From Escherichia coli (lineage in GTDB: Bacteria > Pseudomonadota > Gammaproteobacteria > Enterobacterales > Enterobacteriaceae), in NCBI RefSeq assembly GCF_048403405.1, contig NZ_CP183129.1: a DNA stretch of 64,000 nt. The stretch is one strand, 5' to 3'. The position numbers and the translations under genes are program-made. The stretch's first letter is position 1. Each line of letters starts with the position of its first letter. This document shows positions 2,345 to 30,117 of the stretch, in pieces. The notes beneath the pieces were generated by a model that searched no databases, was not told where the DNA came from, and was given only the letters and a program-made list of their open reading frames with translations.

Positions 2345-2692
2345 ATGAGCACCACTATCGAAAAAATCCAACGCCAGATTGCTGAAAACCCGATCCTGCT
2401 GTACATGAAAGGTTCACCGAAACTGCCGAGCTGCGGTTTCTCTGCCCAGGCAGTCCAGGCGCTTGCCGCATGTGGCGAACGTTTTGCCTATGTTGATATT
2501 CTGCAGAATCCGGACATTCGTGCGGAACTGCCGAAATATGCTAACTGGCCGACCTTCCCGCAACTGTGGGTTGACGGCGAGCTGGTCGGCGGTTGTGATA
2601 TCGTGATCGAAATGTATCAGCGTGGAGAACTGCAGCAGCTGATCAAAGAAACTGCCGCTAAATACAAGTCTGAAGAGCCGGACGCGGAATAA
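2345..2692 (+). CDS. grxD: Monothiol glutaredoxin (Grx4)
   Basis: 115-aa ORF with CGFS active-site motif. Confidence 0.95.
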   Translation: MSTTIEKIQRQIAENPILLYMKGSPKLPSCGFSAQAVQALAACGERFAYVDILQNPDIRAELPKYANWPTFPQLWVDGELVGGCDIVIEMYQRGELQQLIKETAAKYKSEEPDAE

Positions 2693-2742: not shown

Positions 2743-5700
2743 CTATCCCCAATCCAGCCCTTGTGGCGAACTTGAAAATCCCGCCTCACGCAGCAGCGTA
2801 AACATCGGCGTTTGCCGGACCGGTAGATCATTCACTTCTGTTAGCGTAAAGCGCAGCCGTAGTTCGCGACGCAGTGCGGTGGTCAGCGCCTGGAAAATCT
2901 CTGGGGCGAGTAATTCATCTTTTTCCTGCCAGACCAGCATTTTTTTGCCGCCTTGCGCCAGATAGAGTAACAATTTGCCGCCAGAAACGACCACCAGCGC
3001 ACCCGCCCGACGCGTTGGAACCAGCGTTGCCGGATGTGCAGGCCAGGGCAGAAGATTTCCCCACACATTAGCCGGATCGTTGGCGGAGAGCGCCACTGGT
3101 GTATAGTGGCGCGTTTGCGTGGCTTGTGTCGCCAGATCGCGCAATCGGTCAATAGTCAGACGTTCAGCGAATTGCGCACCCCCCAGACCTTCTACAAAAC
3201 GACCTCGCATAATTCGCCCGGAGTCTTCCATACTTCGACAAAGCGTTTGCATCGATGGAAACCCGCCAGGGATATTTTCGGCTATCACCGCCTGACGACT
3301 GATGATGCCGTAGCGGTCGAGCATATTTTCCGCCAGCGCCAGCATCCTTTCGGTATCGTTTAGTGGCTCCACCTGCAATAACGACCAGCGTCCAGCAAGA
3401 TTTGGTGTGTTGTAAGATACCCGCGGCGAGACGGGTTGTGCATAGACAGGACGCCCACGACGAGCCCGGTGACTGCGGCGAGTCGAGGTGCGTGCGTTGG
3501 AACTGCTGCGGGTGAGGGCGCGTAACGGTGCCCAAATGTCGCTGGTAATGAGGCCTTGCCAGACCAGCGCCCATAACGCCTCTTGCAGAGCCGAGGGATC
3601 AACCGATTCGCCGATTTTATCGCGTATCCGTTGGCTGATTTGTTGTGCAAACCAGGCTCCTCCGTCAGCCAGAACAGCGATTATCGCTTGCTGCAGCGCC
3701 GAACGATTCGCCTGATCTGCTTCGGCGGGAGTGAACGATTCTGCGGCATATTCCTGTAGATGCAGTGCCACCAGACCGTCATCTTCACCCAGCTTTTTTT
3801 GCCCCGACCAGATAACCGCACCGGTAGCCAGATAACCGCACCGGTAGCCAGTAATTCATTGAGCATTTCTGGCGAATAGTCGCGTACGCGGGCAGGCAGG
3901 ATCTGGCTTTCCCAGAGTGAGGCGGGTAAACCGACTCCTGCAAGCTGTTCGATCACCCGCATCACGCCATCCACGCCCTCATAAACGCCTGGCGATGTTG
4001 AGGCAAAGAGTGCCGGGCTACCATCGGTGGCGGGTAATACGCCCTGACGTTCCAGCAGCAATCGCGCATAGGTCGTGGCCGCAACGGGACGTGTCGCTTC
4101 TCTGGCGGCTTGCAGCGAGCGCAAACGCAGACGACGAAATACTTCATCGCTCACCCAGATGTCTTGTTGCAGATTCATCACCAGCCCCTGTTCGCGCAGT
4201 TGCTGAAGTTGCTCTTCGACAATGGCAATACCGAGACTAAACTCATGAGCCAGTTGTTCAGACGTGACCAGAGCATGAGCCCGGAGATAGCGCAGAAAGA
4301 GGTCGCGAAGCGGGTAACTGACTCGGTGCAAATAAATCTCTGGCAGTGACTCTGGTAGTCGTACGCCGAGAGCATCGCGCAGCCTGGCGGCATCATCCAT
4401 ACAGGCAAGACGCTCCTGCCCGCTAATCATCGTCCGGAAGATTCGTTTTACTGCAAGAAGATTTTCCAGATACGACGCAATCTCTTCACTGCTGCCTGTA
4501 TGCCGTTGCACCAGGTCTTCAACGGTCATTGGCCCCAGTTCGCGCAGCAGGTCGAACAATCCTTCTTCACCTTTCGCTCTTCTGCCAGGAGCCAGTCGTT
4601 GCAACTCTTCTTCCACCTGGCGAATGACCTGCGGGTCGAGTAATTCCCCCGGATCGACCTGTCCGAGTAGATTGCGCAGTAACTCGCTGTCCAGCGACAG
4701 TACGGATGCCCGGCGCTCTGCCAGCGGGGCGTCGCTCTGGTACATAAATTCCGCGACATAGCCGAACAATAAACTAGCGGCGAAAGGCGAGGGCGTAGTG
4801 GTCGTTACATCGGATATTTGAATTTCGCCACCGTTCAGGCGACGCATCAAACGTTCCAGCGCGGGAAGATCATAAACATCTTGCAGACATTCGCGTAGGG
4901 TTTCGAGAATGACCGGAAAATCTGGATATCCCTGAGCGATTTCCAGCAACTGACTGGCGCGCAGCCGTTGTTGCCAGAGCGGGGTGCGATGGCCCGGCGT
5001 GCGGCCCGGCATTAATAATGCCCGCGCGGCGCATTCGCGAAAACGGGCGGCGAAAAGTGCCGAGCTGCCTACCGCCTCGCGGACAATTTGCAGCAACTTT
5101 TCTGGTTCAAACAAAAAAATCGCGGCATCGGGCAATTTACCATCGGTGTCAGGAATGCGCGCAACAATGCCGTCATCACTGGCAACCACAGACGCGTCAG
5201 CGCCCCATAGTGCATGTATTCGCCCGGCAATCGCCAGCGCCCAGGGTTCATGCACCCGTCTTCCATAGGGAGAGTGCAAAATAATACGCCAGTCACCAAT
5301 TTCATCACGGCACCGTTCGAGGACAAGATGACGACTACCTGGAACGATGCCCGTCGCGTTGCGCTGCTCGTCAATCAACCCCTGAATATTGGCGATCGTA
5401 TTTTCTTCTGCCAACCACGGGGGAATAGTCCCGGAAAAGAACGCGCCATCCGCCAGTAAATGGAGAAAATCGCCGATCATCTCGCCTAATTCTGCCGGAC
5501 GTCCGTTACCTTCACCACGCCAGAAGGGGAGCCGGGCAGAACGACCCGGAGCAGGAGTCACAATCACCTGATCGCGGGTGATTTGCTGGATCCGCCATGA
5601 GGTAGCGCCGAGAGTGATAATGTCGTTCACCCGCGACTCATATACCATCTCCTCATCCAGTTCACCCACCCGCCGCGAACCGGCCTGTTCTTCACCTTCG

Positions 5701-7379
5701 GGTAATAACACGCTATACATGCCACGATCCGGAATGGTGCCGCCGCTGGTAACCGCCAACAATTGAGCGCCAGGTCGGGCGGTAAATATCCCGGTCTCCC
5801 GGTTCCAGACCAGTTTGGGGCGAAAAGCAGAAAAATCGCCAGAGGGATAGCGCCCGGAAAGCATATCCAGCGTGGCGTCAAAAACACGTCTTGGCAGATC
5901 TTTCCACGGTGCGGCACGGCGTACGCGGGAGTACCATTCGTCTACCTGTAATGCATCCATCGCCGCGGCGGCAACGGTTTGCTGCGCAAGGACGTCGAGT
6001 GGATTATGCGGCGGTGTCAGGTTTTCCAGCCTGCCTGCGAACATACACTCTACAATGACTGCGGAATCGACTAAGTCACGCCTGGTTCGGGGGAAAAAAA
6101 GCCCTTTGGAGATACCACCTACCTGGTGTCCGGCACGTCCAATGCGTTGTAACCCACTGGCAACAGAAAGCGGCGTTGCCACCTGAATCACCAGATCCAC
6201 CGCGCCCATATCAATCCCCAGTTCGAGACTGGAGGTTGCGACCACGCAGCGTAATTCACCCGATTTCAGCGCCTGTTCGGTGATTGCTCGTTGTTCTTTA
6301 GAGACGGAGCCGTGGTGTGAGCGGGCAATAAAAATGTCGCTACTTTGTATACGGTTAGAGGTTGCGCCGGAGGTCGACTCGAAATGGACCGCATCAACGG
6401 CGATAGACGGGGAACGCTGTAAGCGTGCGGAGTAAAGCTCATTCAATCGTGCCGTCAGTTTTTCCGCCAGCCCGCGTGAATTAGTAAAGACAATGGTCGA
6501 GCGATGGCGCAAAACTTCATCAAGGATACCCGTTTCAATATATGGCCAGATGGAGCCTTCTCGGCCGGCATGGCTGTCTTCGCCGGTGCCGCTGGCGACC
6601 GATGAGACATCATCCATATTGGCGACCGGTACGACAATCCGTATCTGCGGATGGCGCATTGCGGGCGGGTTGACTACCGTAACCGGGCGATCGCCACCAA
6701 GAAATGCTGCAACATCGCTGGCTGAACGCACAGTGGCAGAAAGGCCAATTCGCTGTGCTGAGGTGTGGAGCAGCGCATCGAGCCGCTCCAGACTTAACGC
6801 CAGATGCGCACCACGTTTACTGCCCGCTACCGCGTGGACTTCATCAATAATTACCGTTTCGACGCCGCGTAGCGTTTCGCGCGCGCGGGAGGTCAGCATC
6901 AGATAGAGTGATTCGGGTGTGGTGATCAGAATATCCGGCGGATTACGGGTGAGTTTGCTGCGTTCCTGTGCAGGCGTATCGCCAGTACGGATCCCCACGC
7001 GAAGATTGACTTCCGTTTCGCCGCGCCGCCGCCGTTCATCGGCAATACCCTTCAACGGGATCTGCAAGTTGCGCTGAACGTCGGTGCCCAGGGCTTTTAT
7101 CGGTGAAATATAGAGGATGCGTGAGGTTTTACGCTTATGCGCCTCACGGGTATCTTCGCCGCCTTCGCGGAAGAGCCGATCGAGGGCGTAGAGAAATGCT
7201 GCCAGCGTTTTCCCGGAGCCAGTCGGTGCAATCACCAGCGCATGTTCGCCTCGCGCCGCCACATGCCAGGTTTGCGACTGGACAGCGGTCGGCTGTTTAA
7301 AGGCGCGAAGAAACCAGTCGCGGGTCGCCGGTGAAAACACGTCCGGCAGGGGCGATGAAGGGTTTAGATTATCTGCCAT
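2743..7379 (-). pseudogene. lhr: Lhr large ATP-dependent helicase, interrupted by a frameshift
   Basis: Two minus-strand ORFs in different frames (3681..7379, 1232 aa, with Walker A GSGKT and DEVH motifs; 2743..3771). Removing one copy of the 20-bp duplication at 3811-3850 gives one 1539-codon frame. Confidence 0.85.
3811..3850. repeat. Perfect 20-bp direct tandem duplication (GATAACCGCACCGGTAGCCA x2) inside lhr
   Basis: Read directly: 3811-3830 is identical to 3831-3850. Confidence 0.95.
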
Positions 7380-7471: not shown

Positions 7472-8119
7472 TTACACCTCTTCGGCGGCAGGTAGCGGCC
7501 AGCCTCCCAGACGTTTCCAGCGGTTGACGATTTCACAAAACAGCACAGCAGTGCGTTCGGTGTCGTACAGCGCGGAGTGCGCCTGGGTGCTGTCGAAGTC
7601 CATGCCAGCGGTCTGGCAAGCCTTTGACAATACGGTTTGTCCGAGTGCCAGCCCGGCAAGTGCAGCAGTGTCAAAAGTGGCGAAAGGGTGGAACGGGTTA
7701 CGTTTCAGTGAGGCGCGTTCTGCGGCGGCCATCATAAAGCTGTGATCGAAATTGGCGTTGTGCGCCACCATAATGGCGCGGTTACAGCCGCTCGCTTTAA
7801 TGCCTTTACGTACAACTTTAAAAATTTCGTGCAGCGCCTCGTATTCGCTGACCGCGCCGCGATCGGGATCGTTCGGGTCAATGCCGTTGAAGGCGAGGGC
7901 CTCTGGCTGCAAATTTGCGCCGACAAATGGTTCGACGTGGAAATGTAATGTGGTGTCCGGCATCAGCCAGCCTTGTTCATCCATTTTCAGGGTGATGGCG
8001 GCAATCTCAAGCAGCGCATCGGTTTTGGCGTTAAATCCGGCTGTTTCAACATCGATCACAACAGGATAAAAACCACGAAAACGGTCGCACAGACCGGTAA
8101 GTTGAGCGTTATCGGACAT
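7472..8119 (-). CDS. rnt: Ribonuclease T (DEDDh 3'-5' exoribonuclease)
   Basis: 215-aa ORF, RNase T sequence ([14 protein letters not shown]). Confidence 0.95.
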
Positions 8120-22138: not shown

Positions 22139-22173
22139 ACAAAAAAAAGCCGCTAACGAAAAGTTAGCGGCTT
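22139..22173 (-). terminator. Rho-independent terminator of dtpA (stem AAGCCGCTAAC / GTTAGCGGCTT + U8)
   Basis: 11-bp stem; A8 run on plus strand equals U-run on the minus transcript. Confidence 0.75.

Positions 22174-27324: not shown

Positions 27325-30117
<2,793 letters not shown>

Follow-up and report, generated by a model that had tools for sequence, protein, structure and literature searches.

The best-described counterpart of the locus reported here is intact E. coli Lhr, a protein of 1538 aa that is both a helicase and a uracil-DNA glycosylase, and whose gene we take to be b1653 in K-12. According to Warren et al. (PMC8053096), the C-terminal domain (CTD) of Lhr is built of two subdomains, an N-terminal one comprising WH2-WH3 and a C-shaped one that comprises WH4-WH6 and a beta-barrel and resembles AlkZ. 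The same study names Gly1149, His1199, Gly1201, Tyr1203, Arg1206, Asp1237, Arg1286, and Ser1288 as the main tetramer contacts, and describes the core alone (EcoLhr-Core, residues 1-877) as a monomer that is an active ATPase and translocase. The catalytic residue of the glycosylase is Asp-1536, and the isolated CTD (residues 876-1538) has weak UDG activity (PMC10953399). A delta-lhr mutant is viable, and is sensitive only to AZT (approximately 10-fold) and H2O2 (10-100-fold). Among natural isolates, lhr is one of the genes specifically absent from phylogroup B2 (Touchon et al., PMC2617782, Table 5).

The lhr locus described here lies in a 64-kb stretch of E. coli DNA, hereafter the window. The gene, which acts in DNA repair, is annotated elsewhere as an “ATP-dependent helicase,” and its segment is matched in 4,381 of 5,426 complete E. 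coli genomes. Gene order in the neighborhood (mepH, grxD, lhr, rnt, gloA, nemA) is standard, with the usual E. coli synteny of lhr beside rnt and convergent with grxD. The ribonuclease T gene rnt (7472..8119, minus strand) is intact and lies upstream of lhr on the same strand, and grxD (2345..2692, plus strand) runs toward lhr from the other side; both were identified from their ORFs together with the annotation of close relatives. A terminator-like hairpin occupies positions 2706-2735, between grxD and lhr. Because no further gene is found on the lhr strand downstream of lhr before grxD, no polar effect on other genes is expected. A scan for consensus promoters and terminators around lhr gave nothing decisive.

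No continuous ORF of about 1538 codons joins the Lhr core to its CTD in the window. The reading frame that begins at the lhr start codon runs for 1232 codons only, which makes the locus a pseudogene or truncated allele of lhr rather than an intact member of the family. Two minus-strand ORFs cover it, one at 3681..7379 (1232 aa) and one at 2743..3771 (342 aa). The 5′ part of the gene (3828..7379, minus strand) consists of native codons 1-1184 and encodes the core, WH2, and most of WH3, which starts at residue 1130. It is followed by an out-of-frame read-through (3681..3827, minus strand) of 48 missense codons, LPVRLSGRGKKSWVKMTVWWHCIYRNMPQNRSLPPKQIRRIVRRCSKR, which ends in a TAA at 3683-3681, and the truncated product would thus match intact Lhr over the first 1184 residues before continuing into a novel 48-residue tail. 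The 3′ remainder (2743..3807, minus strand) holds the last 354 native codons, 1185-1538, and the native stop, in a frame that differs from that of the start codon; it contains the end of WH3, WH4 (residues 1334-1416), WH5, WH6, and the beta-barrel with catalytic Asp-1536.

The cause of the frame change is a perfect tandem duplication (3808..3851, assigned to no strand), in which CCAGATAACCGCACCGGTAG stands at 3808-3827 and again at 3828-3847, followed by CCAG at 3848-3851. The same duplication can be read in a slightly different register, in which GATAACCGCACCGGTAGCCA is present at 3811-3830 and repeated at 3831-3850; direct reading of the sequence agrees on this point with Tandem Repeats Finder, which reports an array at 3808-3851 with a period of 20, 2.2 copies, 100% matches, no indels, and a score of 88. 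In the former register the structure is two units of CCAG-N16 and a final CCAG, i.e., the duplicated unit has 4 bp of microhomology at its edges. The two copies are the sole matches to the 20-mer in the window when up to three mismatches are allowed, and at the same threshold none of 100 dinucleotide-preserving shuffles contained a match. In close relatives the site carries a single 20-bp unit with CCAG on either side, and alignment to them gives a clean 20-base insertion. The duplication is known from one consensus sequence of the strain.

These results agree with most of the preliminary description of the locus, which had reported the 20-bp repeat at 3811-3850, a frameshift after about codon 1184, about 48 missense codons to a stop at 3681, and the remaining codons in another frame (ORF 2743..3771). 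It had also predicted that removing one copy would give a single frame of intact size. Deletion of one copy does yield a 4,617-nt ORF of 1538 codons plus stop, and this repaired ORF is identical to lhr of strain TUM14771 at 4,617 of 4,617 nucleotides; the annotations of MS 69-1 and strain 4621 contain the intact 1538-aa Lhr as WP_001328862.1. Since the repaired ORF is 100% identical in nucleotide sequence to the lhr annotated in the nearest genomes, intact Lhr in this lineage has 1538 aa, and the possibility raised beforehand, that a protein of about 1232 aa is normal here, can be set aside.

Once the extra 20-mer is removed, the locus has not only the same position and the same bases as intact E. 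coli lhr, but also the same Pfam architecture: DEAD (residues 31-218; 1.1e-31), Helicase_C (349-417; 7.6e-13), WH_Lhr (446-616; 2.6e-47), DEAD_assoc (679-867; 3.3e-62), WH2_Lhr (912-1016; 7.7e-19), WH3_Lhr (1130-1206; 7.2e-27), and WH4_Lhr (1334-1416; 6.9e-28). All parts of the Lhr-Core (DEAD, Helicase_C, the Lhr winged helix, and DEAD_assoc) are therefore represented. The repaired protein matches chain A of structure 7LHL with E = 2.4e-127 and has a homologue of the MsmLhr CTD, consisting of WH2-WH6 and the beta-barrel, which the window itself encodes in two frames. In contrast to intact Lhr, the frame in the window is broken after residue 1184, at roughly three-quarters of the gene, which puts the AlkZ-like glycosylase subdomain and the larger part of the tetramer interface out of frame. 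Trp-1184 of the E. coli protein aligns to Trp-1154 of the Msm protein in the cryo-EM structure 7LHL. The break lies within Pfam WH3_Lhr, off any domain boundary, and W1154 precedes interface residues 1199-1288, with nearly all of the named tetramer contacts downstream of the break.

It had been suggested that the truncated protein would keep the helicase core and lose the CTD. The first half of this statement stands, whereas the second goes too far: WH2 survives together with most of WH3, and the loss is confined to the distal 354 residues, which make up WH4-WH6 and the beta-barrel, the AlkZ-like glycosylase subdomain. The predicted 1232-aa product would retain the helicase/translocase core and WH2, would be without the AlkZ-like uracil-DNA-glycosylase subdomain (including Asp-1536) and most of the main tetramer-interface residues, and would carry a 48-residue nonsense tail within a broken WH3 module. 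We infer that the allele is at least glycosylase-null. Judging from other constructs, namely the core (1-877) and the CTD (876-1538), from which all our expectations of activity and oligomeric state are drawn, the predicted product is probably non-oligomeric and may retain core ATPase/translocase activity if it is stable. Should misfolding due to the disrupted WH3 and the 48-residue tail lead to degradation of the protein, the allele would quite possibly be a full null. Among engineered proteins the nearest comparisons are EcoLhr-Core (1-877) and Lhr D1536A, and the predicted product would likewise be helicase-proficient and glycosylase-deficient; however, the natural allele differs from both in ending inside WH3 with a 48-residue missense tail, and its product may simply be unstable.

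Comparison of the full 64 kb with its nearest relatives bears on the age of the event. The window differs from TUM14771, and likewise from MS 69-1, by five SNPs, one homopolymer indel, and the 20-base insertion; three of the SNPs (22476, 39458, and 42078) are common to both comparisons and hence private to the window. Identity to ordinary E. coli is 99.96%. By its sequence, the strain behind the window is distinct from, but very closely related to, the members of a small clonal group: TUM14771, MS 69-1, GN02461, 4621, TUM1226, and OX030728. Because so few differences separate the 64 kb from two relatives, the duplication would be very young and the assembly is otherwise clean. The homopolymer difference, at 22140 in the dtpA-gstA intergenic region (by mapping to TUM14771), is a run of A8 in the window and A9 in TUM14771 and MS 69-1, and is the only indel in 64 kb besides the 20-bp duplication; either true variation in run length or a sequencing error could account for it. 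Within the clonal group, strains 4621 and OX030728 have an insertion of approximately 1.4 kb between ydhL and ydhF, an IS110-family “RNA-guided transposase” element (positions 10946-11965 of the homologous region, L007, in strain 4621), which the window and the other close relatives are without; the corresponding empty site in the window is at about 10.8-10.9 kb.

Searches of public data gave no second instance of the allele. A 461-nt query spanning the site found the duplication in none of the 4,381 complete E. coli genomes that contain the lhr segment. The best identity was 95.7% (441/461), the value given by an otherwise perfect match with one 20-nt gap, so every one of the 4,381 genomes has a single copy. 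This comparison with the lhr of other E. coli genomes had been recommended in the preliminary description, and its outcome is uniform. Exact-sequence look-ups of the 1232-aa product and the 342-aa ORF found neither on record, an exact search of metagenome contigs with the 28-nt junction returned no matches, and when the final 111 aa of the product, frameshift tail included, were compared with 5.8 billion protein clusters, no match had the duplication junction, for which the diagnostic peptide is ATGAVIW|LPVRLSG. The specific allele thus appears to be unrecorded.

The only matches to the 111-aa query were short Lhr fragments that derive from other frameshifts. Such public fragments, e.g., that of Shigella flexneri P0001, enter the same alternative frame as the duplication and share the distal tail of its product (...WHCIYRNMPQNRSLPP..RIRRIVRRCSKR), but they arise from other lesions, and none has the duplication's own junction. 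A homopolymer (T7 on the plus strand, A7 in lhr) lies at 3794-3800, at lower coordinates than the duplication and, as lhr is read, 8 bp beyond it. The Lhr fragments from S. flexneri P0001 and from E. coli P0002 and P0003 read ...SGQKKSWVKM..., consistent with a −1 slip in this A7/T7 run that leads into the same alternative frame as the duplication; these entries may be either genuine pseudogenes or products of long-read homopolymer error.

Natural loss of lhr is common in E. coli. When a 6.4-kb query was compared with the 5,426 complete genomes, 4,381 covered at least 80% of it and approximately 1,044, including CFT073, covered only 31%. In these approximately 1,044 of 5,426 genomes (B2 group; ∼19%) lhr is deleted to a remnant of approximately 230 bp, in agreement with the published B2-specific absence. 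In CFT073 only two annotated pseudogene remnants lie between grxD and rnt (2344-2572 of the extracted region, L006, corresponding to 2743-7379 of the window), one of 126 bp that is the 3′ end of lhr and one of 111 bp that is its 5′ end and is annotated as an “endonuclease.” The B2 deletion and the duplication are alike in being natural losses of lhr function. They differ in that the former is an old, clade-wide deletion of approximately 4.4 kb, whereas the latter is a young, single-strain insertion of 20 bp that leaves every other base of lhr intact. The loss in B2 indicates that lhr is dispensable, and since the loss is so well tolerated in nature, a genuine private frameshift is unsurprising. 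Given this dispensability, the duplication is probably neutral or nearly so, and it would represent the first step of pseudogene formation rather than a designed feature.

In our judgment, the duplication is likely a real, ordinary, recent, and strain-private slippage mutation that inactivates lhr, the resulting allele being probably near-neutral. Slipped-strand mispairing between short direct repeats classically leaves microhomology at the edges of a duplication. The ancestral, single-copy sequence carries a CCAG motif at either boundary of the unit that is duplicated in the window, with a spacing of exactly 20 bp between the two, and the copies themselves are perfect and head-to-tail, with a single copy in close relatives. 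A short direct repeat of this kind is seldom expected by chance (0.0047-0.019): when 20-bp duplications were simulated at all positions of the repaired window, the fraction with a period-20 extension of at least 4 bp was 1.9% by position and 0.47% by distinct event. As proposed from this repeat anatomy, a nascent strand ending in one CCAG would re-pair with the complement of the other CCAG, and the 20 bases between would be copied twice; the shift of the lhr frame after Trp-1184 that such a +20 insertion entails is visible in the ORFs. The lhr case does not differ in kind from described microhomology-mediated short tandem duplications, with which it shares head-to-tail copies, single-copy relatives, and a 4-bp boundary repeat. 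A contribution from hairpins was considered and rejected, as folds of the single-stranded DNA are unremarkable for both strands (z = −1.1 and −0.5).

Strain-specific inactivation, a slipped-strand event, and an assembly artefact had originally been offered as equal options. The 4-bp flanking microhomology makes slippage, resulting in strain-specific inactivation, the best supported of them, and it is an artefact that fares less well. Under the latter explanation the strain has one copy, and the additional 20 bases come from contig joining, finishing, cloning, or consensus error. Untrimmed joining of de Bruijn contigs that overlap by k−1 bases produces exact short tandem duplications, and could have made this one. 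The allele was found nowhere else in the data searched, which fits an artefact and a private mutation equally, and frameshifts seen in a single genome in conserved genes are often sequencing errors (Touchon et al., PMC2617782). However, the remainder of the 64 kb is essentially error-free when set against two independent relatives, the homopolymer difference being its sole indel, and an untrimmed overlap gives no reason for a 4-bp direct repeat at the edges of the unit (chance, 0.5-1.9%). To our knowledge, a perfect 20-bp expansion is also not a typical error mode of common sequencing platforms. Given in addition that lhr is dispensable, which makes a true frameshift plausible, we regard an artefact as unlikely.

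Two further explanations assign the repeat a function or a different origin. The locus could be a functional split, with helicase and glycosylase made as separate polypeptides, or a reversible on/off switch for Lhr. The core by itself is an active ATPase/translocase, weak UDG activity is retained by the CTD on its own (876-1538), and an in-frame GTG at 3771 opens the 342-aa ORF, which runs from WH4 through the beta-barrel. Perfect tandem repeats are, moreover, intrinsically revertible, as slippage can remove tandem duplications, and this would suit a switch. Against a split, the GTG at 3771, which is the sole in-frame ATG, GTG, or TTG between 3855 and 3500, has no good Shine-Dalgarno sequence in the 20 nt upstream of it (TGGGTGAAGATGACGGTCTG), and because it sits 90 nt upstream of the stop of the first ORF, termination-reinitiation coupling is unlikely. 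With this single start and the poor sequence that precedes it, translational restart of the 3′ piece was judged unlikely. The break also falls inside a folded module, WH3, and not in a linker, and the arrangement is kept in no other genome searched; a programmed frameshift or naturally split gene would show a conserved split with a translatable downstream piece, and neither is seen. Phase-variable contingency loci vary in copy number among strains, unlike this site, where the copy number is constant at one in all 4,381 genomes. A functional split or switch is accordingly very improbable. We are also highly skeptical of a natural separation-of-function allele, in which a stable, monomeric, helicase-only Lhr (1-1184) would be made, possibly accompanied by an AlkZ-like glycosylase fragment translated separately from GTG 3771; in that case slippage at the perfect repeat would allow reversion to full-length Lhr, and repair of oxidative damage would be under a crude, reversible switch. 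We give practically no credence to a mobile-element footprint, that is, a target-site duplication left behind when an insertion sequence was excised. Two close relatives do carry an element of the IS110 family in the corresponding 20 kb, but it occupies the ydhL-ydhF interval approximately 7 kb from the duplication, and strain 4621, which carries it, has an intact lhr; on these grounds this candidate was rejected. No remnant of an element is present between the two copies of the 20-mer, no related strain was seen with an element at 3827/3828 flanked by the 20-mer, and a target duplication of 20 bp would be longer than is usual for the common IS families of E. coli.

Taken as a slippage mutation, the lhr duplication is a standard microhomology-bounded tandem duplication, and a clean textbook case of one, with little significance beyond correct annotation. 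For annotation, a single frameshifted lhr pseudogene should be recorded in place of two genes. The locus also joins the clade-wide deletion in B2 as an example of the expendability of lhr in E. coli, and it provides a natural allele that encodes the Lhr helicase core without the glycosylase and tetramerization part, which could possibly be used for comparison with delta-lhr.

The window contains two tandem arrays in all, the lhr duplication and a 96-bp array in rsxC. The latter, at 27374-27892, is imperfect (5.4 copies, 91% matches, no indels) and was placed inside rsxC by mapping its coordinates to the TUM14771 annotation. It keeps the reading frame, 96 bp being 32 codons, and is the same in close relatives; it therefore resembles a repetitive stretch of the protein more than a lesion.
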